IMG/VR virus record: IMGVR_UViG_2778261545_000002
Source of the DNA: a virus
Taxonomy: Duplodnaviria; Heunggongvirae; Uroviricota; Caudoviricetes
Length of the DNA: 35,041 nt
Strand: one strand, 5' to 3'
This document shows positions 1,635 to 28,230 of this stretch, piece after piece. The notes under the pieces are model-generated. The model did no database searches. It had not been told where the DNA came from and was given only the letters and a program-made list of their open reading frames with translations. Position numbers and translations under genes: made by a program. Position 1 is the stretch's first letter; every line of letters starts with the position of its first letter.

Positions 1635-1853
1635 TTACATCCACATAATTTGCTGCCCTGACGGCAACGGGTGCGGCCTTACGGCGTGGACTTCTCCCGG
1701 CTTCACGATGTATCGCTGTACCGACTCATAAGTGATGAACGTGGCGCTGCAATTCACGTTCTGGCACTGGTGATAACGCTCTTTTGTCGTGTCAGTGATA
1801 TAGCGACTTGTACGCGCATGTGCGGCATGCTGGCATAAAGGACAATGAAACAT
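1635..1853 (-). CDS. ogr: Ogr late-gene transcription activator, C4 zinc finger (72 aa)
   Basis: MFHCPLCQHAAHARTSRYITDTTKERYHQCQNVNCSATFITYESVQRYIVKPGEVHAVRPHPLPSGQQIMWM matches P2 Ogr; the track ORF (to 1916) has a 21-aa N-terminal extension that I trimmed to the internal Met. Confidence 0.85.
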   Translation of the reverse strand: MFHCPLCQHAAHARTSRYITDTTKERYHQCQNVNCSATFITYESVQRYIVKPGEVHAVRPHPLPSGQQIMWM

Positions 1854-1934
1854 CGCGAGCACCTCTTCCGGTTTTGTTGATGGTGCCATTTTAGTTAATT
1901 TATCCTTATAAAACAAACAGATAAAATAAAAACA

Positions 1935-3098
1935 TCACTCATCATCTTCTGTTTCGTACTCCACATCAGAAAGCCTGACCTCAAGCTCCAAGGACGTCGT
2001 GAAGCCGCTATTATTCAGAAAATGTGTCACCTTAGTGATTGTCCAGTCCTGCTCGTCTATGACGCGCTTAAAGCCTGACACTTTAACCGGTGTTTCCGTG
2101 TAAATATCAGCACGACCGGTAGCCAGACTGATGGAGAACTCCGCAACGCCCCGTTGCAGCTTATCCCACTTCGCCTGAGCGGCGCGCATGGCCTGCGCTT
2201 TCGTGGCATATACCGTGGTCAGGGCAAAAACGTTGTCAGCCTCACCGGCCATGTATTCACCTTCGCGCGCTTCCGGTACTTTTGGCGCTTTCTTCTGCGT
2301 GACCGGTTTCGCTTTCGGGTGCTCCAGTGCGCGCAGGTGTTTTTCTTTCTTTTTGCGTTTCAGTTTTACCTTCTGCTTTTGCGGCTTCGGGTCTTTGGTG
2401 TGTAACCACTTTGCCGTTACGCCGGTGTAAGCTCCACGGTCAGCAATCGCAAAATGATGACGGTCGCCGTCGCTGCGGGTGATGGTAATCTGCGGGATTT
2501 TTTTACCGCTGGCCGTCACCCCCTGCCCCGCTTTGAGAAACAGCAGTTTTCCCATTTTTACCGACACCTCACCGCCGTTGCGTTCTGCAAGACGGGTCAG
2601 AAATTTCGCATCAGACTCCTGCGACTGGTCGATGTGCGGGATTTTAATTCCGGCCAGTGACGGAGCGACACTGGCTTCCAGCCTGTTACGGGAGGCTATC
2701 GCCTCAACAATCGCACCGAGCGTGGTGTCATGCCATGAGCCTTCCCGGCGGGAATTGAGCGTCCCGCGAAAATCTGCACTCCGGGCGCGGATGGTGACCA
2801 CATCCGGTGCGCCCCGGTGTTCAACCTCATCAACGGTAAATTTCCCTTTGCATACCAGGGCAAAACCTTTCCAGCCGATATACACCGTCAGGACAGCGCC
2901 ACGAACCGGCAGCCCGACCTGCCCGTCGGCATCGTTCAGTTCAATATCAAGCTGGTCAGCCTCAAAGCCCCGGTTATCCGTCAGGGTCATGCTCATCAGA
3001 CGGTCGCTGATATTGCCGGTAATATCCCTGCTGTCGAGCATCAGCATGTAATCCGGCGTCAGCGTACTGCCTGCATCAAATGTCAGCGCATCCAGCAT
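1935..3098 (-). CDS. D: Tail protein D (387 aa)
   Basis: Length identical to P2 gpD (387 aa); position between ogr and U; stop/start overlap with U. Confidence 0.85.
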   Translation of the reverse strand: MLDALTFDAGSTLTPDYMLMLDSRDITGNISDRLMSMTLTDNRGFEADQLDIELNDADGQVGLPVRGAVLTVYIGWKGFALVCKGKFTVDEVEHRGAPDVVTIRARSADFRGTLNSRREGSWHDTTLGAIVEAIASRNRLEASVAPSLAGIKIPHIDQSQESDAKFLTRLAERNGGEVSVKMGKLLFLKAGQGVTASGKKIPQITITRSDGDRHHFAIADRGAYTGVTAKWLHTKDPKPQKQKVKLKRKKKEKHLRALEHPKAKPVTQKKAPKVPEAREGEYMAGEADNVFALTTVYATKAQAMRAAQAKWDKLQRGVAEFSISLATGRADIYTETPVKVSGFKRVIDEQDWTITKVTHFLNNSGFTTSLELEVRLSDVEYETEDDE

Positions 3099-3577
3099 TA
3101 TTCCGCCCCCGTCATCCCCGTGAATCTGGTCGCCAGACTGCCAGCCTTACCGATGAGCGACTCCGCCTGTTTACCGATATCGCCATAAAGCGCGGCCAGT
3201 GATTCATCAACGCGGGTGAGTGACAGCGTAAAATCAATTTTCCGGGGTGTGCCGTCTGCAAAGAAAATACTCCCTGTTTCACTCACCCTGCTGATGACAT
3301 ACATGCCGTAAATCATGCCTGTGCCATCCAGCAACGGCCACGCCCGGCCTTCCTCTGCCATCAGCCTGAGCGTGGTCATCGTCAGCTTTCCGCCGGTCAG
3401 TTCAGGATAAAGCACACCGGCAAGCGTGATGTTTTCCTCACCCACACCGAGAAACTGGTAGGCATCCCGTTTACCGATACGGGAATTTGACGGCCAGCGA
3501 TAATCTGATTCACGCTGCATGGTCTGGTGTGGCAGCGTCTGGCGCATAAAAACAAACATACCTAACGCGAGCATCAT
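3098..3577 (-). CDS. U: Tail protein U (159 aa)
   Basis: Length equals P2 gpU; synteny between T and D. Confidence 0.85.
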   Translation of the reverse strand: MMLALGMFVFMRQTLPHQTMQRESDYRWPSNSRIGKRDAYQFLGVGEENITLAGVLYPELTGGKLTMTTLRLMAEEGRAWPLLDGTGMIYGMYVISRVSETGSIFFADGTPRKIDFTLSLTRVDESLAALYGDIGKQAESLIGKAGSLATRFTGMTGAE

Positions 3578-3591
3578 TTTTCGTCACCTCC

Positions 3592-6039
3592 TTAACCGTC
3601 ATGCATCATGCTGGCACGGGCGCGCGCACGTTTATCCCGCTCGTATTTTTCGAGCGCATCCTGTAACTGGCGGTCAAGCTGTGTCTCCGGCGCAGTACCG
3701 CCCGTCAGGCTGATGTGATATTCGTTTTTACTCTGGTCCACATAAGAGCGGCCAGCCGGTGCCGTGACCGGCTGATAAGCCTGATAGCCTGCATAAGAGC
3801 TGGTCGCCGGAATATAACCACCGGTGCCATACGTGGCGGCATTAGTCCTTGCGGCGGTCTGGTCAAGTGTGTCTGACTCTTTGTTGATAACACCGAGTTT
3901 TTCCAGTACCCAGTCAATACCACTGCGCAGTTTGTTGAACGCATTAAGCGGCAGCATCAACGCGTCAGCCAGTGCCTGCCCGAACATGACGCCCGTGTCA
4001 CGGCAACGGTTCAGGGTGTCCTGTGTGGCTTTAACCGGGGCAATCAGGTTTTTAAACCACTGCCACGCGGCCTGTAACTTTTCTCCCAGCCAGTCAAACA
4101 CCGGCTTAAGTGGCGTGAACAGTTCCCCCACCGGCGCAAATGCCGCTTTCAGCCCTTCCACCACACCGCCAAAGAATGCGCTGACAGGCTCCCAGTATTT
4201 ACGGATAAGCAACGCCCCGGCGACAATGGCGGCCACCACAGCCACAACCGGCCAGCTAATCGCCCCGATGGCCGTCATAACGGCACTGCCAACCGTCGTG
4301 AAGATTGCCCCCATTGCGCCTGCTGCCGCGATGATGGCATTGATGCCGGTGATAACCGGCCAGGCTACAAGGCCAATGGCACCGATGATGCCAGTAAGCG
4401 CCAGCGCGCCACCGGCAATGATGCCGATGGTTGACGCCAGTGATTTGTTTTTCTGGATCCAGCCGTCGAGTTTTAACACATACTTTGTGGCTGTCTGCGT
4501 GAGCTTACGCAGCGCGCCTTCCTGCTGGTCAAACAGGTCAGTCCCCACCGCCTCATAAGCGGACTGAAACTCCTTAAAGTCACCGCCGAGGTTATCCTGC
4601 ATGATTTTAACCAGCTCTTCCGTTTTACCGTCCGAGGCTTTCAGCGTGGCGGTCAGCTTATCCAGTTTTCCGCTTGCTGCCGCTGCCAGTAAAACGTTCG
4701 CTGATTTCAGGGCTTCCTCACCAAAAATGGTTTTAAGGTATTCCCCCTTCTGAGACGTTCCCAGCTTGTGTTTATCAAAGCTGGCCTGAATCTCTTTCAG
4801 AATGGTGAATAACGGACGCATATTTCCCTTTTTGTCCGAGGTTTTCACGCCAAGCTCTTTGAGTGCATCCCATGCTTTTCCAGTCGGTGCCTGTAATCGG
4901 GTGACAACGGCACTGCTACCCGTCCCCGCCATTGACCCCCTGATGTTATTGTCATGCAGCACACCTGTCATGGCTGCTGCCTGCTCAAGACTTACACCTG
5001 CCGTCCTCGCAACCGGCCCGAGGTAAGTCAGTGCATCACTGAGTCCCTGAAAATCAGCCGCCGACTTATTCATCGTTGCCGACAACACGTCGCCCACATG
5101 GCTGACATCATCATTTGACAGTTGAAAGGATGCCTTAGTCCCCAGCAACAGTTGCGCGTTTTCTTCCATCGACCGCTGATTCGCCAGTGCCATATTCAGC
5201 GTGACCGGCGTTGCCGCCTGAATAGCCGCAGCATCTCCACCCGCTTTCGCAATGATAATCTGTGCACCGGCTGCATCATCTGCCGAGGCTGCGGTATTGT
5301 CGCCGAGCTGGCGCGCCTGCTTGCGGAGTGCGGTCATTTCGGCGGAGTCTTTTGCCACACCGAGCACAGCCTGTAATTCTGAGTTTTTCTGCGCAAACTC
5401 ATAACCGGGCATCAGCAGCTTAACTCCGGCCATCGTTCCCGCAGCTGCAATCCCCACACCGGCAGCGCCCACTGAGGCCATATTTCCGGCCAGTTCCTTT
5501 CCTGCCTGATAACGCTGTTTGACTGCGTTAAGTTTTACCTGTTGTGCACTGACACGCGCCAGCGCGTCACGCTGACGGTTAAGCTGTGCGGTGGTTTCAC
5601 TGATACGGTTTTTCAGTCCCTGCTCATCATGTGCAAGATTGCGGGTATTAATTCCCACAACGGCCAGTTCCCGCTGCTGGCGTTTAACAGAATCCGTCAG
5701 GCGGTTATATTTCGCCTGTAAGTCCTCCGCCGCACGCTTTGCGGATTCCAGCACTTTCGCCTGAGCACGGGTCGGACGTTCGGTGTTTTTAAACTGTGTG
5801 GCAAGGGCTTCGGCTTCCTGCCGAGCCTTTTCAAGTGCATGACCAGTCACGGCGAGCTGTGCACTGGTCTTGCGAAATCCCTCAATACGGGATGCCTGAC
5901 CGTTCAGCTCGCGCAGTGATTTTTGTGTTTCCCGGATATCCCCCGACAGCGATTTGCTCGCTGTGCGGATGGATTTAAACGGGCGGGATGCCTGGTCAAC
6001 AGCCCTGAGCAATACCTGTAATTTTACATTGTTACTCAT
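3592..6039 (-). CDS. T: Tail tape measure protein T (815 aa)
   Basis: 815 aa as in P2 gpT; Ala/Gly-rich hydrophobic central segment typical of tape measure proteins; synteny. Confidence 0.88.
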   Translation of the reverse strand: MSNNVKLQVLLRAVDQASRPFKSIRTASKSLSGDIRETQKSLRELNGQASRIEGFRKTSAQLAVTGHALEKARQEAEALATQFKNTERPTRAQAKVLESAKRAAEDLQAKYNRLTDSVKRQQRELAVVGINTRNLAHDEQGLKNRISETTAQLNRQRDALARVSAQQVKLNAVKQRYQAGKELAGNMASVGAAGVGIAAAGTMAGVKLLMPGYEFAQKNSELQAVLGVAKDSAEMTALRKQARQLGDNTAASADDAAGAQIIIAKAGGDAAAIQAATPVTLNMALANQRSMEENAQLLLGTKASFQLSNDDVSHVGDVLSATMNKSAADFQGLSDALTYLGPVARTAGVSLEQAAAMTGVLHDNNIRGSMAGTGSSAVVTRLQAPTGKAWDALKELGVKTSDKKGNMRPLFTILKEIQASFDKHKLGTSQKGEYLKTIFGEEALKSANVLLAAAASGKLDKLTATLKASDGKTEELVKIMQDNLGGDFKEFQSAYEAVGTDLFDQQEGALRKLTQTATKYVLKLDGWIQKNKSLASTIGIIAGGALALTGIIGAIGLVAWPVITGINAIIAAAGAMGAIFTTVGSAVMTAIGAISWPVVAVVAAIVAGALLIRKYWEPVSAFFGGVVEGLKAAFAPVGELFTPLKPVFDWLGEKLQAAWQWFKNLIAPVKATQDTLNRCRDTGVMFGQALADALMLPLNAFNKLRSGIDWVLEKLGVINKESDTLDQTAARTNAATYGTGGYIPATSSYAGYQAYQPVTAPAGRSYVDQSKNEYHISLTGGTAPETQLDRQLQDALEKYERDKRARARASMMHDG

Positions 6040-6459
6040 TCGTGTTTCCGCTTCGCCGGAGCGCCTTTTCGCGCCATGTGATGAGTTCGGTCAGGCTCAT
6101 GGGATACAGTTCTGATGGCGGCCAGTGAAATATCACTGCCACATCCGCCATCAGGTCATCGACCGAGAGATTTTTCGGAAACGTCACTGCACCGAGTTCG
6201 GCGACAAAAAACCGACCACCTTACCGGCCAGCGCCACAAGGTCAGGCAGTTCCAGCGCGGCGACCTCCTGTTCGGTCAGCATCGGTGCCGTCATGCGCGG
6301 CAGCACTTTAATCAGTGCATCGACTTCGGAGTTCGCGACCGCAGCCAGACTGACACCGCGCAGCGTCCCGGCATTGGGTTTCATCAGCGTGACCTGTTCG
6401 ATAACCTGCTCACCACGCTTGACCGGATTGTCCAGGGTAATCACATTTTCTTTGTTCAT
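6032..6459 (-). CDS. E: Tail assembly chaperone E (6184..6459, 91 aa) and E+E' fusion made by programmed -1 frameshift at TTTTTTG (plus coords 6205..6211), extending to a stop at 6032..6034
   Basis: E ends ...GKVVGFLSPNSVQ*. The minus-strand heptamer T-TTT-TTG sits in E; the -1 frame continues ...FFVAELGAVTFPKNLSVDDLMADVAVIFHWPPSELYPMSLTELITWREKALRRSGNTNE*, and its stop overlaps the T start (ATGAGTAA), as in P2. Confidence 0.8.
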
Positions 6460-6515
6460 GGTTTTCTCACTTCTGAATCAGGGTTAACCGGTCAGCCAGG
6501 CTGACCGGATGAAAA

Positions 6516-7034
6516 TCACAGGCCGATATTTCGGCGGTGTTGCTCCAGCCGGTCGACGCCGTTCACCTTCTCAATCATGTTGATGGTGTCGATTTCGACC
6601 AGCTCCTTACCGTCCATCGTCAGCCGGAAATAGGTGCAGACCACGGAGATTTTCGACTCGGTGTCTTCTCCCTGTTTACCCTCGCCGGTGTCGATTTCTT
6701 TCTGACGTCCACGCATGACCACTTCGACGGCCACCGTTTCGCCGGTATCGTCGCGCTGGTAAGAGCCTGCAAAACGAATCGGCACGGCATCCACACCGGT
6801 TGCGGCGTAAAGCTCCCAGATAACCGAATCCGGGAAGCCCCCGAGCGACCACTCCATTGACAGCGCATCGTCATCAAGGCCGAGGTCTACCGGTGCGCTG
6901 CCGTTCATCCCCGCACCGCGATAGTTTTCGAGCTTACGGGTCAGTTTTGGCAGCGTGACGGACTTTGCAACGCCCTGATAGCTGTAGCCGTTCAGAAAGA
7001 CGTTCATTAACTTGAGTTTGCGCGGCATTGCCAT
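6516..7034 (-). CDS. FII: Tail tube protein FII (172 aa)
   Basis: Length and position match P2 gpFII. Confidence 0.85.
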   Translation of the reverse strand: MAMPRKLKLMNVFLNGYSYQGVAKSVTLPKLTRKLENYRGAGMNGSAPVDLGLDDDALSMEWSLGGFPDSVIWELYAATGVDAVPIRFAGSYQRDDTGETVAVEVVMRGRQKEIDTGEGKQGEDTESKISVVCTYFRLTMDGKELVEIDTINMIEKVNGVDRLEQHRRNIGL

Positions 7035-7046
7035 CGGTCAGTCTCC

Positions 7047-8237
7047 TTAATTGCTGTTAACCGAAGTGACCAGATTTGCCAGGTATTTATCGGTGATACG
7101 CTGGCGCAGGGTCAGGTTTTCGAGAGGAGGCACCGGGGTATAGTCGTAGTCGATATACAGTTTTCCGGCCTTGAGGGTTTCCGCATCGTTGGATTCTTCG
7201 CTGAACCAGCAGGTCGCATCCACGATATAGCCGTTTGTTTTCAGCTCACGGAATTTGGCATTGATGCCGTCAACGATGTCGCGAATCAGCGTTGCGGTGA
7301 TGGGCTTGTCCACCGCCCACATGTGCGCCTCAGCCATCGTATCGGCCAGCACCTGCGCGGTGCGGGTGTAGTTTTCAAAGAGGAAAAGCGGGTCATCAGA
7401 GCAGGTACGGTTACCCCAGAATCGGAAACCGTCACGGCGAATCAGCGTAGTGACGCCTGACTCGTTAAGCAGGTCAGCATCGGTGCCGGACTCCTGCAAA
7501 TCCCAGAATACAGATGCGCTGATGCCGGTAACACCGTTCACCCCGACATTGGACAGCGTTTTATGCCAGCCCTGCTCCTGGTCGATTCTGGCACGCAGAC
7601 CCAGCGCACGGGCGGTGGCATACGCGGTGGCGGTGGTGCTGGTGACCGTATCCCATGCGAGGAAATCCGGCCAGATGACCATCAGCTCACGCTGGCTGAA
7701 ATTCTGGCGGTAGGCTTTCACCTCGGAAATGGTCTTACAGCCCCATGCGCTGATATACCCGAAAGCGCGCAGCTTCTGACAGACTGATGCCAGTGCAACA
7801 GCCACCTCTTTGGTGTCCAGTCCCGGCACACCGAGAATACGCGGTTTAACACCGGTTACCGACTCCGCCGCCAGCAGGGCTTTCAGTCCGGTGTACTGAC
7901 CGTTTTCGTCGGTGGTGCCGATGATATTGGATACGGTCTGCGCGAGTTTCGTTTCCTCGTCGTCGCCGGTGCCGTCTTCCACACGCACAACAACGGTGAC
8001 CGGTTTTGACTGGTCAGCGATGGCCTGCAACGATGCCGCCAGCGTGCCTTTTTTACCAGCCTTTGCAATTGCACTCTGCACATTGGTAATCAGCACAGGT
8101 TTATTGAGGGGGAAGGTTTCCGCATCCGCATCGCTGGCCGTGCAGACCAAGCCGACAATGGCAGTGGATACGGTGGAAATGACGCGGGTGCCGTCGTTAA
8201 TCTCCAGCACCTGCACGCCGTGATGATAGTCACTCAT
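7047..8237 (-). CDS. FI: Contractile tail sheath protein FI (396 aa)
   Basis: Length and position match P2 gpFI; begins MSDYHHGVQVLEINDGTRVI... Confidence 0.88.
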   Translation of the reverse strand: MSDYHHGVQVLEINDGTRVISTVSTAIVGLVCTASDADAETFPLNKPVLITNVQSAIAKAGKKGTLAASLQAIADQSKPVTVVVRVEDGTGDDEETKLAQTVSNIIGTTDENGQYTGLKALLAAESVTGVKPRILGVPGLDTKEVAVALASVCQKLRAFGYISAWGCKTISEVKAYRQNFSQRELMVIWPDFLAWDTVTSTTATAYATARALGLRARIDQEQGWHKTLSNVGVNGVTGISASVFWDLQESGTDADLLNESGVTTLIRRDGFRFWGNRTCSDDPLFLFENYTRTAQVLADTMAEAHMWAVDKPITATLIRDIVDGINAKFRELKTNGYIVDATCWFSEESNDAETLKAGKLYIDYDYTPVPPLENLTLRQRITDKYLANLVTSVNSN

Positions 8238-8424
8238 CCGTTTAACTCCGTGGTTAATGGGTGCAACTATTTTCTGTTGGGCAGTGCATGAGACGCTATT
8301 TGACCTGGCTGGTCAGTGGATGAAACAACAGACAAAGAAAAAGCGGGTAATCCGCCTGCCTGTCATGATTTGCACTCACTCATTTTCCAACTGACAATTT
8401 ACATAGCCCAAACGCTATCAAATC

Positions 8425-8454
8425 TGACAGTCTGCTTTGAGCGAGGAGCAGACT
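8425..8454. repeat. Hairpin-forming element, left copy (8-bp stem AGTCTGCT/AGCAGACT, 10-nt loop), at the left GC-to-AT boundary of the cargo island
   Basis: Inverted repeat read directly; 23 of 30 positions identical to the copy at 10529..10558, with a compensatory stem change. Confidence 0.6.
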
Positions 8455-8623
8455 TAACCTTTTAGAGTGTAATTTTCCAAGAAATATAGCATTATCAAAT
8501 TAGCAAAAGGCATTAGATGATTTTATATTCATTTCATTAGCCGCAAGTTAGGTATGGACCGATGAGAGATGATTACAGAAATCAGTCGGATCATTTTACA
8601 GTACTTTATGAGTGTGGATTGCT

Positions 8624-10420
8624 ATGAGTAAAACCTACCAAGAAATTATTACAGAACTGATTGATCGCATTTATCAAAAGAAGAATACATCAGAAACTAC
8701 TAAGATCATATTGAAAGCACACTTTACTCAGACATCTTCTAGCAGAAACTTGACCTTAGATACGCTGGGTAAACTACCTGAACTCAAGAAAGAGGTCACG
8801 AGAGAAAGAGCACGTCAGATCATATCAAAATTCTTAAATCAAGACTTGCCGTCAGAACTAAGTCGGCTCAACCGAGGCTTGGTAGCAGGTGATACGATTA
8901 CCCTAGCTGCGAAAACTGACCTTATTCAATTGAAGAAATTGATTGAAATATTAATCGGAAAAATAACGACCACTAAAAAACCAGTATTTTCAAATAAAGT
9001 CCAAAGCACTCTTATAGCAGCAGGTGTAATTGATAGTAACATTTATCTTCCTATAGTTACTCAGTTAGCAAAATCATTCGAAATAAATGCACATTTCAAA
9101 TTTCATGAATATAATGGACATCAAATCATACTGGAAGAAAATCATAATCCCAAATCCATTACTAGCGATTTAATCACATATGCCGGAAAGATATCAACGT
9201 ATTTTGGTGGTTTATTTTCAATAGAAAAACTTGCTGTTTGTTCATGGGAGTCAGACCCTCCTGGTTTTATTAGGGAAATTCCTGATGAAATTAAGGTGCA
9301 ATATATATCTGACTTAATTTCAACTGAAGAAGATTTTTTATCTATTTCTAATGGACGTTTTTATGCTTTCACGTCTCGTGACGAAAGAGTTAGTCGAATT
9401 CTCAAACCAATTTTTATTCATTATAAAAACCCACTAAAAGTTGAAAGAGTTATATCTGCTTTAAAAAGGGCCCTTACACACAACTTCCGTCGTAGTGCAG
9501 ATGCCCGTCAACCCCCCTGCCTAGAGCTTCTAGAAAGCGCCGATGGTGCTCTGGACGATTATTGTTTGAAAACTGGATTACTACAAGAGTCAACACCCGG
9601 TTATAGAATACCTGGAGATAGCCTTTATTCAGAACTCCAATTGGAAGATGTCAGTGGTACTATCCATTATCAAGTTATTGCCTTAAATGCTATAAAATCA
9701 AATGGTGGCCCCTTAGACTCAATGAGCATTGGTAGGGAATTAAAAGGGAAAATCCCGCAAGCTTTCAAATCATTGATTTTTAGTTATCCAACCTTGTATT
9801 ACAAAGAAGGTGGCGGGAGACGAAATGATTACTACAAACCACTTGATGATGAATATATTCCAACCAAGCAAGTGGCTCGGCCTATCGATACCAGAATGGA
9901 AAGAATAGATAGTATAAGAAGAAAAATAACAGACATCATAAGCGAATTGGATTCACTAGATGTGCTGGGAACCTTTTTAAGAAAGACTCGTGCAGAACAA
10001 GCATTACTTCGAGAATACCTGCTCCTTCAACAATCGCTGTTATATAGCAATGAAAATAATGTAGGGGTCTGTGAGATTTGCGGAAATTCATGGCCGCATG
10101 CTATTCTCATTGCTGCGCATGTGAAACCTAGATCTAAATGCACACATGAAGAGCGAGCAGATTTCGATAACATAGCAATGTTGCAATGTGCAATATGTGA
10201 TTCACTTTTCGAAAATGGTTTCATTGCCATTCGTTCAGATGGAAAAGTTGCAATTAGCCGAGATAAAAAAATGACCACACACCTTGCGCAAATGTATTCT
10301 ACAATCGAAAGAAGAACCATTCCTTACGTCAACGGAAACACAAACCGTATGAAATACATACAATACCATTGGGTGAATATATTCAAAGGTGAAAGTTCTT
10401 TATTTGATATTAAATCGTAG
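8624..10420 (+). CDS. Cargo protein in the P2 Z/fun hotspot: N-terminal sigma-70 region-4-like HTH plus C-terminal HNH (4-Cys, AHxxP-type) nuclease motif; candidate anti-phage defence or abortive-infection nuclease
   Basis: AT-rich ORF on the opposite strand to the flanking late genes. N-term ...TLDTLGKLPELKKEVTRERARQIISKFL resembles the sigma-70 r4 HTH; C-term CEICGNSWPHAILIAAHVKPRSKCTHEERADFDNIAMLQCAICDSLFENGF fits a C-x2-C...H...N...C-x2-C HNH. Start is ambiguous between GTG 8612 (track) and ATG 8624; neither has a strong Shine-Dalgarno. Confidence 0.7.
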   Translation: MSKTYQEIITELIDRIYQKKNTSETTKIILKAHFTQTSSSRNLTLDTLGKLPELKKEVTRERARQIISKFLNQDLPSELSRLNRGLVAGDTITLAAKTDLIQLKKLIEILIGKITTTKKPVFSNKVQSTLIAAGVIDSNIYLPIVTQLAKSFEINAHFKFHEYNGHQIILEENHNPKSITSDLITYAGKISTYFGGLFSIEKLAVCSWESDPPGFIREIPDEIKVQYISDLISTEEDFLSISNGRFYAFTSRDERVSRILKPIFIHYKNPLKVERVISALKRALTHNFRRSADARQPPCLELLESADGALDDYCLKTGLLQESTPGYRIPGDSLYSELQLEDVSGTIHYQVIALNAIKSNGGPLDSMSIGRELKGKIPQAFKSLIFSYPTLYYKEGGGRRNDYYKPLDDEYIPTKQVARPIDTRMERIDSIRRKITDIISELDSLDVLGTFLRKTRAEQALLREYLLLQQSLLYSNENNVGVCEICGNSWPHAILIAAHVKPRSKCTHEERADFDNIAMLQCAICDSLFENGFIAIRSDGKVAISRDKKMTTHLAQMYSTIERRTIPYVNGNTNRMKYIQYHWVNIFKGESSLFDIKS

Positions 10421-10524
10421 ATCTGTATCCAGATATAAGTAAGAACTAGGGCTCTAAACCCTTTATAGTATTGAGGGATTATTGAGAAATATTAATAAAC
10501 GTAATATCAATGCTCTTTTGATGC

Positions 10525-10582
10525 AATTTGACAGTCCGCTTTTGGCACAGAGCGGACTGTCAGATTAGGCTTTACTCTGTGC
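10525..10582. promoter_or_regulatory. Two mutually exclusive hairpins between the converging cargo gene and G: A (16-bp stem 10525..10540/10551..10566) and B (9-bp stem GGCACAGAG 10544..10552 / CTCTGTGCC 10574..10582)
   Basis: Inverted repeats read directly; hairpin A contains the right copy of the repeated ~30-bp element (10529..10558). No clear U-tract on either strand, so a classical intrinsic terminator is uncertain. Confidence 0.5.
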
Positions 10583-10618
10583 CATAGATATGTAAGCTCA
10601 CACCAGAGTTCATACAAC

Positions 10619-11146
10619 TTATTGCGGCATTTCCGGCCATTCAGGATTTGCAGGATCCACACGACTGACCACAACGCTGTAGCGTTCCCAAGCCTCCAGC
10701 CGTGTGCGCTCCTCCTCTGTTGCCATGTTCAGCCTGACAGCGCGCTCCAGCGGCAAAATCACGGATTCAGCATCTGCAAGAAGTCTGGCTTTCCGATTTT
10801 CTGCCTGCTGCTGCAATTCCTCTGCCGTATAAATTCGTTTAATCACTGTACCGTCCTTAAACATCCAGCCCCCTGAAATGTCCGCCCGTCGGTTAGCAGT
10901 AATATCCGGCACTTCAACAACACTTAATCCATCCGGTCTGATAGCTGTCACATCCTTTTCCACATAGCGGATAATATTATCTTTGTCGTACGCTATTTTT
11001 ATCGTGTCATCAGCAAAATACTTTTGTTCTTCGTACCAGTTCTTACCATCTTCTGAAAAAAACCAGACAACATCAAAGTCCTTTGTCAATTGATATTGTT
11101 CAACCGTTTTTGGATTACCTGCCGTTATATTTATCAAATGCTGCAT
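10619..11146 (-). CDS. G: Tail fibre assembly chaperone G (175 aa)
   Basis: 175 aa as in P2 gpG; immediately downstream of H. Confidence 0.8.
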
Positions 11147-11149
11147 AAA

Positions 11150-13468
11150 TTATACCTGCGCCACGTTATACCAAGTCCCGTTAATGTATTTCTGCACCGG
11201 TCTGTAATATACGCCACCAATGTTATCGGCAGAGTTTGAGCCGGTATCCTGAACAATAATGCCGGAATATACACACCCGGACGGTGCCTGATGTGTCCAT
11301 GTCATGCCATTGTTCGCAGGTTTGTATGTGGCAGCACCACCAAGCCGGATATCCCGGACATAGCGTGAATCAAAATTACTATAGTTAGATGGTGATACCT
11401 GCCCGTTAACAGCAAAAGTGATGCTGTTATCTGTATTTCTCTGACTGTAAAAATGCCAGCCTGCATCATCACCTAATTCAGCCACCACCGGACGACTTGA
11501 GTTTCCCCACAAATTGAATGCGGCTTCCTTCGTGGATGTATTGCTGCTGCTGACCGTGAACTTTTTCCCGCTACCGGCACGTACTTTGGTACTTGAGACA
11601 ATATCACCTGTAACACTCAGGCCATGCCCCATTGACACTCCGCCATTGGCGTTATTGATAGTCAGCGGCCTTAAACCGTTCCATGTCCCAAATTTATCGC
11701 CAGAGGCCGTCAGCATTAAATATGTGCTGCCGCCATCATTCCTGATAAAGAATCCATAATTGCCATAAGCAATGCGCAGACCATTAGCACTGAGTGATGT
11801 AATCTCACCTCTTGAACGGAGACCATAAGCGGAGCTGAGTGATAATTCTTCCTGAGCATCAGTATTACCAGTCGCCCAGCGAACTACCCCGCCCTGTACT
11901 GTTTCATGCCAGACAGTGTCTCCTTCTCCACCACGAAACTTTCTGAGATATTTTTTGCCGCCTCTGGTGCCTGAACATAAGGCCGTAGACATATAGGCAT
12001 TCTGGCTACCGCCGTCCTGATTAATCGTTCCGGTCATTTCGTCGCCCTGACGATTCCAGTCACGACGCCAGCCGGGGGAGTAGCCGTCCCCATGATTAAT
12101 GTAAGTGAATTGCGCGCTGGTTGTACCGCCACCACTTGATGTTGTCGGCGTGGTCACTCGGATAGTGATTGCAGATTTAATTCCCATGACCTCGACGACA
12201 CAACCAGCCAGGTGGATATCACCACATCCGGTATCCGTAATGATTTTGTTATTTGCATATGACCAGGAGCCTTTGCACATCCAGTACGGATGATTAAATG
12301 CACCACGGGAATCCAGCCATTCAATAAACTGAGCGGTTGTCCAGTTTCCGGCTTCAGTACTCAAAGCGCCGCTATAAGCACGACAGGCACCGATATTTTT
12401 CGTGAAGGTATCCTTTCCCGGAATATCCGCACCATTCTGATCTTTCTGAAGACGTTTTTCAGCATTGTCATAGGCAGACTTCACCGCTTTTGGTGTTGCG
12501 GCCAGTGTTTCAGAATCACTATTGGTGGCGCTACTTAGCTGGACAAGACCTTTTCGCGCGGTGGTGGCATCCTGTGCAGTGTATTTCCCGTTAGCAAGGT
12601 CATACGCAGCCTTTACCGCCTTTAGCGTTGCCGCAAGCGTTTCAGAATCACTGTTGGTGGCGCTACTGAGCTGAACAAGGCCTTTTCGCGTTGTGGTGGC
12701 GTCCTGTGCAGTGTATTTCCCGTTAGCAAGGTCATATGCTGCCTTTACCGCTTTCGGCGTTGCGGCGAGCGTTTCAGACGTGCTGTTGGTGGCACTACTG
12801 AGCTGGACAAGGCCTTTTCGCGCTATGGTGGCGTCCTGTGCGGTATATTTCCCGTTAGCAAGGTCATACGCGGCCTTTACCGCTTTCGGCGTTGCGGCCA
12901 GTGTTTCAGACGTGCTGTTGGTCGCACTGCTTAACTGAGTAAAACCTTTTGCGGTCAGCGAGGCGTCCGGGTGACGTCGTGACTGTTCGTGCTCTGCAAT
13001 TTTGTCATCAACGTAATCCTGCGTCGCCATCACCGTTGTGGTGTCAATGGTCAGCTCCACTGAGGCCACACTGCTGACGATGATGACCATGCGGCAGGTC
13101 TGCGAACGCCCTGAGCCTTCGGCAAGTGCGGGTTTATAACTTTCGGCCATGTTCGCCACGGCAATTAACGTTCCCGCATCATCGTACAGGCCAAGCTCAC
13201 GCATCCAGAAACCGCCCACCTCCGGCGGAATAACCAGCTCTGCGATAATATAATTACTGTTTCGTTTGTCCTGGCTGATTTTGTTCAGCGCATGTCGCCA
13301 GACTTCATGGATAAGCCCGGTCTGTCCGGCATCCGGGACAGGCAATTTACCACCGCCATCCCCGACGGCCATAGTGGTAATGTTGACCTTCCGCCCTCCC
13401 GGTGCGGTTGCCGCTGCCAGCTTTGCTGCACCGGCAGTGGTGATAACGGTTCTGAATTTTGTGCTCAT
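11150..13468 (-). CDS. H: Tail fibre protein H (772 aa) with internal tandem tail-fibre repeats
   Basis: Position between I and G; contains about 3.6 copies of a 44-aa repeat KGLVQLSSATNS[TD]SETLAATPKAVKAAYDLANGKYTAQDAT; longer than P2 gpH (669 aa). Confidence 0.85.
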   Translation of the reverse strand: MSTKFRTVITTAGAAKLAAATAPGGRKVNITTMAVGDGGGKLPVPDAGQTGLIHEVWRHALNKISQDKRNSNYIIAELVIPPEVGGFWMRELGLYDDAGTLIAVANMAESYKPALAEGSGRSQTCRMVIIVSSVASVELTIDTTTVMATQDYVDDKIAEHEQSRRHPDASLTAKGFTQLSSATNSTSETLAATPKAVKAAYDLANGKYTAQDATIARKGLVQLSSATNSTSETLAATPKAVKAAYDLANGKYTAQDATTTRKGLVQLSSATNSDSETLAATLKAVKAAYDLANGKYTAQDATTARKGLVQLSSATNSDSETLAATPKAVKSAYDNAEKRLQKDQNGADIPGKDTFTKNIGACRAYSGALSTEAGNWTTAQFIEWLDSRGAFNHPYWMCKGSWSYANNKIITDTGCGDIHLAGCVVEVMGIKSAITIRVTTPTTSSGGGTTSAQFTYINHGDGYSPGWRRDWNRQGDEMTGTINQDGGSQNAYMSTALCSGTRGGKKYLRKFRGGEGDTVWHETVQGGVVRWATGNTDAQEELSLSSAYGLRSRGEITSLSANGLRIAYGNYGFFIRNDGGSTYLMLTASGDKFGTWNGLRPLTINNANGGVSMGHGLSVTGDIVSSTKVRAGSGKKFTVSSSNTSTKEAAFNLWGNSSRPVVAELGDDAGWHFYSQRNTDNSITFAVNGQVSPSNYSNFDSRYVRDIRLGGAATYKPANNGMTWTHQAPSGCVYSGIIVQDTGSNSADNIGGVYYRPVQKYINGTWYNVAQV
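12470..12949. repeat. Tandem 132-bp repeat array (about 3.6 copies) inside H
   Basis: Near-identical 132-nt units visible in the DNA (e.g. 12550 vs 12682); they encode the 44-aa repeat on the minus strand and a mirrored repeat in the antisense track ORF 12693..12938. Confidence 0.85.
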
Positions 13469-13478
13469 TATTCCTCAC

Positions 13479-14009
13479 TTATCCGGGGTAAACCGTAATT
13501 ACATCGCCGTCGTAAGCCACACCACCGGCGAACAGGTATCCGGGAATGTCCCGGGTAATGTTCAGGCCAATAAGGTGGCGGCTTGCAGGTTTGGCATCAG
13601 CAATCAGCCGTTCCATTTCCTGATACATTGCCTCTGTGATACCGCTTTCCAGTACACCAATATCAAGCCGGAAGGTGCCGGGCGGGTCACAGTTTTCCCA
13701 CCACTCCGTCACGTTGATGAGATAGCCGAGCGGCTCCACCACACGCCGGATTGCACCTATAGTGCCCTTATGACAGTGGATGAAATGGGCATCGCGGATA
13801 ACGGCGCGTTTTGTCGCTTCCGGCCACTTTTCATCCCACCTGTCGACCGAAAACGCCCACGCCAGCCACGGCAGCAGATTTGCCGGACAGGTGTCCGGGT
13901 TCCACAGCTCACGAATACTGACCGGCGTTTTTTCAATTTCCGCACAGGCTTTTGCGGCGGCGACCTCAAGCGGTGATGAGCCGGTCGGCAGCAGTCGCGA
14001 ATCACTCAT
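13479..14009 (-). CDS. I: Baseplate assembly protein I (176 aa)
   Basis: Length and synteny with P2 gpI. Confidence 0.82.
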   Translation of the reverse strand: MSDSRLLPTGSSPLEVAAAKACAEIEKTPVSIRELWNPDTCPANLLPWLAWAFSVDRWDEKWPEATKRAVIRDAHFIHCHKGTIGAIRRVVEPLGYLINVTEWWENCDPPGTFRLDIGVLESGITEAMYQEMERLIADAKPASRHLIGLNITRDIPGYLFAGGVAYDGDVITVYPG

Positions 14010-25524: not shown

Positions 25525-27285
25525 ATGACTGTACGTCTTGCTTCAGTTTCAATTAGCAACTTTCGTTCTTGTAAGGCAACATCGGCTATTTTGCGCCCCT
25601 TTACTGCTTTAGTTGGTTATAATAACGCAGGAAAATCAAATATCATCTTAGCAATTAAGTGGCTGTTAGATGGCTCTTTGATTTCAGAATCAGATGTGTA
25701 CGATCCTACACACCCCGTATCCGTTGAAGGCGTTATTCAAGGTATAACAGATGATACTCTATCTTTGTTAACAGAAGAGAATCAACAAAAAATAGCTCCG
25801 TTTATAATTGACGGGACTCTTACCTTTGCAAGAAGACAGGAATTTAATAAGGAAACAGGAAAAGTCAAAAAAAGTCTGGATGTATATGATGGCACCACGT
25901 GGAAGAAAAACCCTGGCGGCATAGATGGTGCAATTTCCAATATATTTCCGGAACCAATTCATATCCCTGCAATGTCTGACGCCGTCGAAGACTCAACAAA
26001 ATGTAAAAATACGACCACAATAGGAAAGATACTTTCCGCAATTGTTTCTGAAATAAAGCAAGAGCACGAAGAGAAATTCTCAAAAAATATATCAGAAATA
26101 GGTAAATATCTTTCTCACAACGGTGAGAACAGATTAGAAAGCCTTAATAAAATAGACTCGGGTGTAAATAAAAAAGTAAACCAATTTTTTCCTGACGTAA
26201 GTGTAAAGTTACACTTTCCCACACCGACATTAGATGAAATATTTAAATCCGGAACCCTGAAAGTTTTTGAGTCTCGGGAAGATGAACCAGTAATGAGAGA
26301 TATCAGCCGATTTGGTCACGGAACACAACGTTCCATTCAAATGGCATTAATTCAATACCTGGCCGAAATAAAAAAAGAAAACAGCGAATCAAAAAAATCA
26401 AATACTTTAATTTTCATTGATGAACCTGAGTTATATTTACACCCTTCAGCTATTAATTCTGTCAGAGAATCACTTGTCACATTAAGTGAATCAGGGTATC
26501 AGGTTATAATATCAACTCACTCAGCCAGTATGCTTTCTGCAAAGCACGCAGCAAATGCGATTCAGGTTTGTAAGGATTCTAATGGAACCATAGCAAGGAA
26601 GACCATATCTGAAAAAATCGAAGAATTATATAAGTCTTCATCACCGCAATTGCACTCAGCATTCACACTATCAAATTCATCATATTTCTTATTTTCAGAA
26701 GAAGTTTTGCTTGTTGAAGGAAAAACAGAGACAAACGTCCTATATGCACTTTATAAAAAAATTAACGGACATGAACTCAACCCAAGTAAAATCTGCATTG
26801 TTGCCGTTGACGGTAAGGGTAGTTTATTTAAGATGTCACAAATCATCAATGCCATTGGTATAAGAACAAGAATTCTAGCTGATTGTGATTTCTTATCAAA
26901 CATCCTATTAACAGAGCATAAAGACTTACTTAGTACTGAATGTGATAATCTCTTGACTGCTTTGACTGAATCAATCAACTCAGGCGAGCTTAATTTAAAT
27001 ACAAAAGTCACTACTTTTGAGTCATTCAAAAGCATTTCAAGCAAAGACTTCATCAAAATATGTAATCATGAAAAAACACAAAAACATATACATGAAATCC
27101 ATCAAAAATTGAAAGATAATGGAATCTATATATGGAAATCCGGTGATATAGAAGCTGTTTATGGATTTGGTAAAAAACAAACTGAATGGGATAGTCTTTT
27201 AGATTGTTTATGTGATGAAAGCAAAGATGTTAGAGCAGTAATAAAAAAATATGATGAAATGGAAGATTTCATTAAATGGATTTAA
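25525..27285 (+). CDS. old: OLD-family ATPase/Toprim nuclease (P2 Old-like, 586 aa)
   Basis: Walker A GYNNAGKSN, Walker B-like LIFIDEPELYLHP, Toprim-like LVEGKTE and ADCDF motifs; AT-rich; RBS AAGGA upstream of the ATG; same length and position as P2 old. Confidence 0.8.
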   Translation: MTVRLASVSISNFRSCKATSAILRPFTALVGYNNAGKSNIILAIKWLLDGSLISESDVYDPTHPVSVEGVIQGITDDTLSLLTEENQQKIAPFIIDGTLTFARRQEFNKETGKVKKSLDVYDGTTWKKNPGGIDGAISNIFPEPIHIPAMSDAVEDSTKCKNTTTIGKILSAIVSEIKQEHEEKFSKNISEIGKYLSHNGENRLESLNKIDSGVNKKVNQFFPDVSVKLHFPTPTLDEIFKSGTLKVFESREDEPVMRDISRFGHGTQRSIQMALIQYLAEIKKENSESKKSNTLIFIDEPELYLHPSAINSVRESLVTLSESGYQVIISTHSASMLSAKHAANAIQVCKDSNGTIARKTISEKIEELYKSSSPQLHSAFTLSNSSYFLFSEEVLLVEGKTETNVLYALYKKINGHELNPSKICIVAVDGKGSLFKMSQIINAIGIRTRILADCDFLSNILLTEHKDLLSTECDNLLTALTESINSGELNLNTKVTTFESFKSISSKDFIKICNHEKTQKHIHEIHQKLKDNGIYIWKSGDIEAVYGFGKKQTEWDSLLDCLCDESKDVRAVIKKYDEMEDFIKWI

Positions 27286-27468: not shown

Positions 27469-28230
27469 ATGAATAACATGGAGATTTTGAAAGCCGTAAA
27501 AGCTGGAATGAAAAAGTCAGCCAAAGCTACTTATTTAATGGATTTCAGTTCCGGTGGAAAAATAAACACTGAATATGTAGCTACCGTATCTATAGGTCAA
27601 TCCTTGATTAAAATAACATCTTTTCATCATGGTGATTACAAGATCATATTTGAATACCATACAAATAAATTCATTAATGCAACAGTCCCTTTATCGAAAC
27701 GGCATGACCCCAACAATATATTCTCAAGACACATTATCAGAAAAAATGCAAACACAAAAAGACCAGGCAGAATCGATATTGCCATATTGGACAGTAGATC
27801 ATTTTTCGAGACTCCTATATGTGCAATAGAAGTTAAAGGAAACAACCCTAGTAAAAAACTTTTATTTTCTGACATAAGAAGAAATCTTGAATACTTTAAA
27901 CACACAGGTCCTACGGGGAGTTCAAGCCTTGAACTAGCATTAAACTGTTTATTCCATTCATACAATGATTCAACTAAAAAAAATTACTGCACTACAATCC
28001 ACCATAAGGAAGACATGATAAGGAAATTAAAAAACAAATATAAAAAATACATATCTGAATTAAATAAAGAAATTCCAGATGATATATCTGTTACAATTGA
28101 TGTTTTTACAGCAGCAGAGCATTTACTATCTCCTGATGCTGACCAATATGAATACGAATCACATATAGATGACTTACATTTGACGCTTGGCGTTATGGTT
28201 ATATTCGAACGAAAATCGATACTCAATTGA
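27469..28230 (+). CDS. tin: Tin-like protein (253 aa), assigned by position; possible PD-(D/E)xK-like motif
   Basis: AT-rich ORF directly after old, where P2 carries tin; RBS AAAGGAG; GRIDIAILD...ICAIEVK resembles a D...E-x-K nuclease core, but this is a weak motif-level call. Confidence 0.5.
   Translation: MNNMEILKAVKAGMKKSAKATYLMDFSSGGKINTEYVATVSIGQSLIKITSFHHGDYKIIFEYHTNKFINATVPLSKRHDPNNIFSRHIIRKNANTKRPGRIDIAILDSRSFFETPICAIEVKGNNPSKKLLFSDIRRNLEYFKHTGPTGSSSLELALNCLFHSYNDSTKKNYCTTIHHKEDMIRKLKNKYKKYISELNKEIPDDISVTIDVFTAAEHLLSPDADQYEYESHIDDLHLTLGVMVIFERKSILN

Follow-up and report, generated by a model that had tools for sequence, protein, structure and literature searches.

A solitary HNH nuclease gene with a predicted array of four winged helices in the Z/fun slot of a P2-like prophage: a candidate single-gene defence on a hairpin-bounded cassette

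The 35,041-nt stretch of DNA analyzed here (the window) contains a P2-like prophage, whose site of integration is next to yegQ/ogrK. Between its tail sheath gene FI (7047-8237, minus strand) and its tail-fibre assembly gene G, the fibre chaperone (10619-11146, minus strand), there is only one long open reading frame (8612/8624-10420), which lies on the plus strand, antisense to the late operons, and is the only cargo there. Its GC content is approximately 37% (0.33–0.40 along its length) as compared to about 55% in the late genes. The map of open reading frames and the GC profile thus agree with the original prediction, made from the letters alone, of a lone AT-rich gene on the opposite strand. 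Both the N-termini of homologues and RefSeq support the ATG at 8624 as the start, with which the coding sequence (8624..10420, plus strand, stop included) specifies a protein of 598 amino acids.

The Z/fun gene of phage P2 is non-essential, and its slot had been proposed as the site of the open reading frame. Indeed, the GenBank records named "P2-EC58/EC67 proviral Z-region" align with both flanks. The alignment to other P2 Z-regions is lost near 8458 and comes back near 10530, and therefore about 2.07 kb are slot-specific cargo; DNA matches to P2-like phages are confined to the flanks of the open reading frame. With Z/fun the gene shares the slot, the orientation antisense to the late genes and its non-essential status, but no sequence similarity. 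A tblastn search of 50,697 phage records (E<=1e-3) yielded no relative, by which Fun/Z or any other phage protein of that collection is excluded as its identity. A defence hotspot inside the P2 late/tail genes has been reported by a recent survey. Other cargo of the same slot in Escherichia coli comprises an HTH protein plus acetyltransferase, a DUF6615 protein, an S1 peptidase, a SMEK-domain protein and several hypotheticals, and GenBank labels other Z-slot ORFs as "putative lysogenic conversion proteins." Also among these cargoes, in E. coli SRY157 (L017, 1876-2910), is a protein of 344 aa that bears its HNH_2 domain at the N-terminus and is unrelated to the 598-aa protein; its HNH resembles that of CBASS SAVED-HNH effectors and the PADLOC candidate PDC-M68A (E 4e-31), the SAVED domain being absent.

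The C-terminus of the 598-aa protein (aa 480–590; 10061..10393, plus strand) is a nuclease domain of the HNH_2 (beta-beta-alpha-Me) type, as judged by a profile match at threshold (PF13391), by its fold and by its invariant residues, which is in line with the 4-Cys HNH motif first read there. A Cys4 zinc site (C483, C486, C522, and C525) and the catalytic residues H499, N516, and D526, the last being a metal ligand within a CxxCD motif, are invariant in 25 of 25 sequences. By sequence the domain is intact and is presumably active as a nuclease. In PADLOC-DB v2.0.0 only three models (HNH/REase_II) match, at residues 425–591 with a best E of 5.7e-9, and there are further weak C-terminal matches to Type II/PT-restriction HNH models. 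The PDB sequence match of the C-terminus is VcaM4I, and among solved structures the HNH is closest to VcaM4I and TagI, both of which are modification-dependent. No entry in Pfam, NCBIfam, PHROG, PADLOC, or PDB covers more than the HNH. A known defence family is therefore excluded, and the earlier statement that no named one fits holds for PADLOC 2023, Pfam, NCBIfam, and PHROGs, all of which match the C-terminal HNH only. Two other identities were considered and rejected: a colicin or contact-dependent toxin HNH, because there is neither an immunity gene nor a delivery domain, and a terminase-associated HNH, because the terminase genes are distant and the gene is missing from 1,038 of 1,039 slot-bearing E. 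coli genomes and is found outside phages.

Residues 1–475 have no match in Pfam, NCBIfam, or among PDB sequences, so that the middle is as blank in the sequence libraries as it had appeared by eye. Structure prediction with AlphaFold2 (full length pLDDT 83; residues 1–415 pLDDT 87.5, pTM 0.77) gave a confident model in which an N-domain with an HTH is followed by four tandem winged helices, a helical hairpin and the HNH. The N-terminal helical domain (aa 1–116; 8624..8971, plus strand) contains the HTH (aa about 24–88), which had been described as sigma-70 region-4-like. This likeness is genuine but weak. The motif VTRERARQI is invariant (V58, R60, E61, R62, R64, Q65) and resembles sigma-70 region 4.2; at the sequence level, the sigma-4 likeness scores below every curated cut-off, and neither phmmer against the PDB with the N-terminal 116 amino acids nor the N-terminal profile found a match. 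In the model the winged-helix array (8981..9841, plus strand) consists of wH1 (aa 120–171), wH2 (about 176–249), wH3 (255–330), and wH4 (345–406), with the invariant motifs SRDERxS (aa 251–257) and, in the wing of wH4, YPTLYYKEGGGRRNDYYKPLDD (aa 388–408); the basic wing GGGRRND of wH4 is conserved. Fold searches with the array retrieved only generic winged-helix matches, including JetA, MukF, and ScpB, and Foldseek a weak resemblance to the FokI recognition domain (E 0.15). Directly before the nuclease there is a long helical hairpin (aa 423–474; 9890..10045, plus strand), which by analogy to the linker helix of VcaM4I is a candidate dimerization or auto-inhibitory element (PMC7897488). It is in the sensor module that the novelty of the protein lies.

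The sensor module could recognize a phage protein instead of DNA, upon which the HNH would degrade DNA indiscriminately and thereby kill or arrest the infected cell. For example, phage factors that bind region 4 of the host sigma factor could be lured by the sigma-70 region-4-like domain, which would serve as a decoy. Such abortive infection would be consistent with the invariance of VTRERARQI, which in a distant subgroup of the family reads SRERIRQII, with the absence of a methyltransferase and with the finding that an HNH of this subtype, taken by itself, cuts DNA non-specifically and is toxic (PMC7897488). We consider it unlikely, however, since the similarity to sigma region 4 is weak and the four winged helices with their conserved basic wing look more like a nucleic-acid binder.

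The protein resembles Type IV enzymes of the VcaM4I/TagI/ScoMcrA type, which are likewise single polypeptides with a C-terminal HNH of the same subtype behind a helical linker and have no cognate methyltransferase adjoining. Thus, HNH subtype, linker-HNH order and lack of a methyltransferase mirror the Type IV reader-HNH enzymes. The HNH of VcaM4I dimerizes and is toxic alone, and its linker auto-inhibits until the reader engages DNA (PMC7897488). The protein differs from these enzymes in being twice as long, in having as last metal ligand the Asp within CxxCD where VcaM4I has His residues, and in its sensor, where four winged helices and a sigma-4-like HTH take the place of a PUA/EVE/SRA/SBD reader. 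A recognized modification reader (PUA/EVE/SRA, SBD, or DpnI-like wH) was not found in residues 1–475 by Pfam, NCBIfam, or PDB sequence search; a novel one may reside there. DpnI, HhiV4I, and HtuIII also have a winged-helix DNA sensor fused to a nuclease (HNH included) and no methyltransferase (PMC11037411), but one winged helix instead of four, and they do not match in sequence. The target of these enzymes is GATC methylated by Dam, and in Dam+ E. coli they prove toxic (PMC11037411). Because the gene lives in Dam+ hosts, this specificity cannot be shared, and a Dam-GATC-reading wH-HNH enzyme is excluded.

The Type IIS enzymes FokI and BpuJI have a PD-(D/E)XK or PLD nuclease rather than an HNH and no sequence homology to the protein, the fold matches being weak and generic; in contrast to FokI-like Type IIS restriction-modification, no methyltransferase is encoded with the nuclease. 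Dam is present in enterics and Vibrio and is not known from Pseudomonas. This bears on the interpretation of the gene as an orphan Type II/IIS enzyme that cuts a specific unmodified sequence, the host being shielded by a methyltransferase elsewhere such as Dam or Dcm. The PADLOC "Type II restriction enzyme" HNH models that match the C-terminus (E 2e-7 to 5e-6) and the likeness of the array to the FokI recognition domain could be read in this way. It is nevertheless extremely improbable: a methyltransferase adjoins the gene in no context read, and a single-gene cassette or phage cargo that needs a resident methyltransferase would kill new hosts, whose resident methylation varies. The orphan Type IIS-like "END" nucleases, finally, have an iEndoIII sensor (PMC12191111), which is absent here.

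Relatives of the protein are few. Word-indexed searches revealed 24–28 clusters of 549–620 aa from Escherichia, Pantoea, Pseudomonas, and Vibrio cholerae, and an exhaustive profile search with the N-terminal 415 residues only 25 proteins among 1.84 billion representatives; on plasmids there are relatives of the 110-residue HNH core only. Among 5,426 complete E. coli genomes just one, that of strain SBF45, has the gene. The survey of the slot that had been proposed found its flanks in 1,039 E. coli genomes, all others of which (1,038) have other cargo between them. A distant subgroup of about 500 aa retains the HTH, the array, the wing motif of wH4 and the Cys4 HNH. Since this subgroup keeps sensor and nuclease together, the two form an obligate pair; a search for another effector on the same sensor module found none. 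The gene is under purifying selection throughout (dN/dS about 0.2 overall and 0.11–0.33 by region), the HNH being the most constrained region (0.11). It should be mentioned that on one short contig (L023) a distant member of 502 aa is adjoined by a faint match to Y1_Tnp, the IS200/REP-associated transposase (2882-3478), which may be relevant as such enzymes act on hairpin ends.

In every context read the gene is solitary, without a conserved partner, as had been expected of a single-gene system, and no DNA methyltransferase adjoins it. In V. cholerae it is a single-ORF cassette in an integron array of DUF645, toxin-antitoxin and acetyltransferase cassettes. For example, in L002 it is flanked by 122-nt attC/VCR-like repeats (9835-9956 and 11801-11922); 136-nt repeats flank neighboring cassettes of the array, and the neighbors differ among four strains. 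SIR2_2 domains are common in defence systems, and in one V. cholerae strain (L004, 8193-9779) a 528-aa SIR2_2 protein is encoded by the cassette immediately upstream of the one with the HNH homologue. In Pantoea vagans (L014) the gene lies between a trio (1839-7663) for a TerB_N/TerB_C protein, a BrxC/BrxD-like ATPase and a DEAD helicase and the gene for a 1,209-aa AAA_11/AAA_12 helicase (10009-13638), surroundings that look like a defence island. A further enterobacterial copy has DUF2971, an integrase and Type I restriction-modification for neighbors and lies within the variable end of a CP4-like element; the Pseudomonas copy is in an island bordered by an integrase. The Type I restriction-modification near the gene in L016 is a separate, complete system.

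A sequenced V. cholerae strain, N16961, has in its chromosomal integron two HNH-related single-gene defence cassettes, Sirona and Nemetona (bioRxiv 10.1101/2024.07.02.601686), with which the V. cholerae copies have in common a distant HNH similarity and their nature as single-gene cassettes of the chromosomal integron. Judging from rarity, identity with either is unlikely: the homologues are on about 10 V. cholerae contigs. A cassette of N16961 would be expected in very many sequenced pandemic V. cholerae genomes.

The contexts also bear on a role outside defence, in which the protein would be a DNA-binding regulator or a lysogenic-conversion factor with an HNH that acts on host or prophage DNA, e.g., in repair, recombination or transcription control. 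HTH and winged-helix arrays are typical of regulators and chromosome-organizing proteins, as the matches to JetA, MukF, and ScpB illustrate, and the GenBank label given to other ORFs of the slot points in the same direction. Such a role is improbable, however, considering that no residue of the catalytic and zinc sites varies, that these sites are the most strongly constrained, and that unrelated hosts and elements carry the gene as a lone cassette beside defence genes.

The coding sequence is preceded by a non-coding region of its own (8455..8623, plus strand), which by alignment is conserved in L011, L014, and L016 and hence moves with the gene between genomes. A promoter scan revealed there a candidate sigma-70 promoter, TTAGCA-18-TATATT (8500-8529), with a 9/12 match, the number of such matches not being above chance. 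The 3′ non-coding region (10421..10524, plus strand), which contains a weak stem-loop (10447-10462), is conserved in other copies as well. Outside of these regions there are two boundary elements, revealed by repeat search together with alignment and folding. The left one (8421..8454) is a 34-nt inverted-repeat arm with a hairpin at 8429-8454 (AGTCTGC-N12-GCAGACT), which as DNA is moderately stable (−7.1 kcal/mol, z −2.25). The right one (10525..10566) is a hairpin with a 16-bp stem and a 10-nt loop, whose 3′ arm supplies the second arm of the 34-nt inverted repeat and which is very stable (−15.1 kcal/mol, z −6.1). Compensatory changes in the hairpin of Pantoea were considered and downgraded, because shuffled sequence folds as well as this copy does (z −1.1).

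Homology to the copies outside P2 begins at 8417-8434 and ends, in L011 and L016, at 10557. L011 to L013 match the window from hairpin to hairpin (8430-10557) with 95% identity and L016 (8417-10557) with 82%, the cassettes spanning 41-2167 in L011 and 7751-9934 in L016, and extra copies of the hairpin bracket neighboring genes (L011 3219-3263; L016 10897-10981). The hairpin element has 2,916 occurrences, spread over 2,060 of the 5,426 E. coli genomes and including the edge of the variable region in CP4-like islands (L019/L020, about 4001-4042). On the evidence of these alignments, the enterobacterial gene moves as a hairpin-bounded 2.1-kb cassette. Because the homology extends from hairpin to hairpin and hairpins are found round other genes and islands, cargo seems to be swapped at them, which points to a recombination junction shared by P2-like phages and integrative islands and suggests a concrete route for the exchange of defence cargo between prophage hotspots and chromosomal islands.

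Some HNH enzymes are homing endonucleases, and it is conceivable that the HNH and the DNA-binding array target the boundary hairpins or the empty slot and thus spread the cassette in the manner of such an enzyme. This would agree with a discrete hairpin-bounded unit that moves between P2-like prophages and other islands and with a hairpin element as widespread as this one. The S1 peptidase, acetyltransferase, SMEK, and DUF6615 cargoes, however, are in the same hairpin-bounded slot without a nuclease, and therefore the hairpins are independent of this gene; in V. cholerae there are attC-like repeats instead of hairpins. Nor is there an intron, an intein or a target gene that is split: the gene stands free, in a slot of many cargoes and in an integron and islands as well, which speaks against the homing endonuclease that the original prediction had allowed for. 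Carriage by 1 in 1,039 slot-bearing genomes fits poorly with an efficient homing element, and to our knowledge a protein of 598 aa with four winged helices is unlike the known HNH homing enzymes. A selfish nuclease is thus very improbable.

Taken together, we favor the interpretation, with a probability of roughly 0.55, that the P2-like prophage carries the gene as cargo expressed in the lysogen and that its product is a stand-alone, restriction-like nuclease that serves defence. Judging from its context, the gene probably makes up, by itself, a new anti-phage weapon. The five unrelated mobile-element settings in which the gene is found, a single-gene integron cassette and defence islands among them, strengthen this interpretation. 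The protein would be made in the lysogen from its own promoter and would dimerize through the HNH/linker region, linker and sensor keeping the nuclease inactive. Cutting would occur only once the winged-helix array engages a feature absent from the host chromosome, the likeliest candidates being a DNA modification foreign to the host and an unusual structure in the DNA of the infecting phage, and the invader would be destroyed without the need for a methyltransferase. Nuclease activity, auto-inhibition, trigger and anti-phage phenotype are all proposed here by inference.

Single-gene nuclease defences are now common. Of the original proposal of a candidate new single-gene system, the single gene and the lack of a family match hold, but "categorically new" would be too strong, because sensor-linker-HNH without a methyltransferase is a known Type IV or orphan Type IIS-like design; the new elements are the sensor module and the cassette vehicle. 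A more far-reaching proposal, which we regard as distinctly unlikely, is that the HTH with the four winged helices represents a hitherto unknown class of invader sensor, which either reads phage DNA that is hypermodified or of unusual structure or mimics region 4 of sigma-70 and so detects phage factors aimed at the host sigma factor, that this sensor licenses an auto-inhibited HNH, and that the hairpin cassette system is a non-integron analogue of attC through which P2-like phages and CP4-like islands exchange cargo.

If the restriction-like nuclease protects against phages, the defence catalogue would gain a compact system of one gene whose sensing module is unexplored, and the P2 Z slot would have a second functional example besides fun. 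An array able to tell foreign DNA from that of the host with no methyltransferase involved could bring to light a new principle of recognition, and such a winged-helix array might serve as a reagent for modified DNA.

Old and Tin are the classic exclusion genes of P2, and the same prophage carries both in the portal-gpA hotspot: old, which is full-length (25525-27285; PADLOC E 1e-214), and tin (27469-28230; E 9e-100). The prophage of strain SBF45, which is 98.7% identical to the window over 1-25222, has at this hotspot only a 993-bp gap and neither old nor tin, and the window thus stems from a genome other than that of SBF45. In BLAST against SBF45 the tail-fibre gene H gives offset self-matches (12461-12928), which reflect internal repeats of about 132 nt that encode 'TAKGFTQLSSATNSTSETLAATPKAVKAAYDLANGKYTAQDAT' peptide units.
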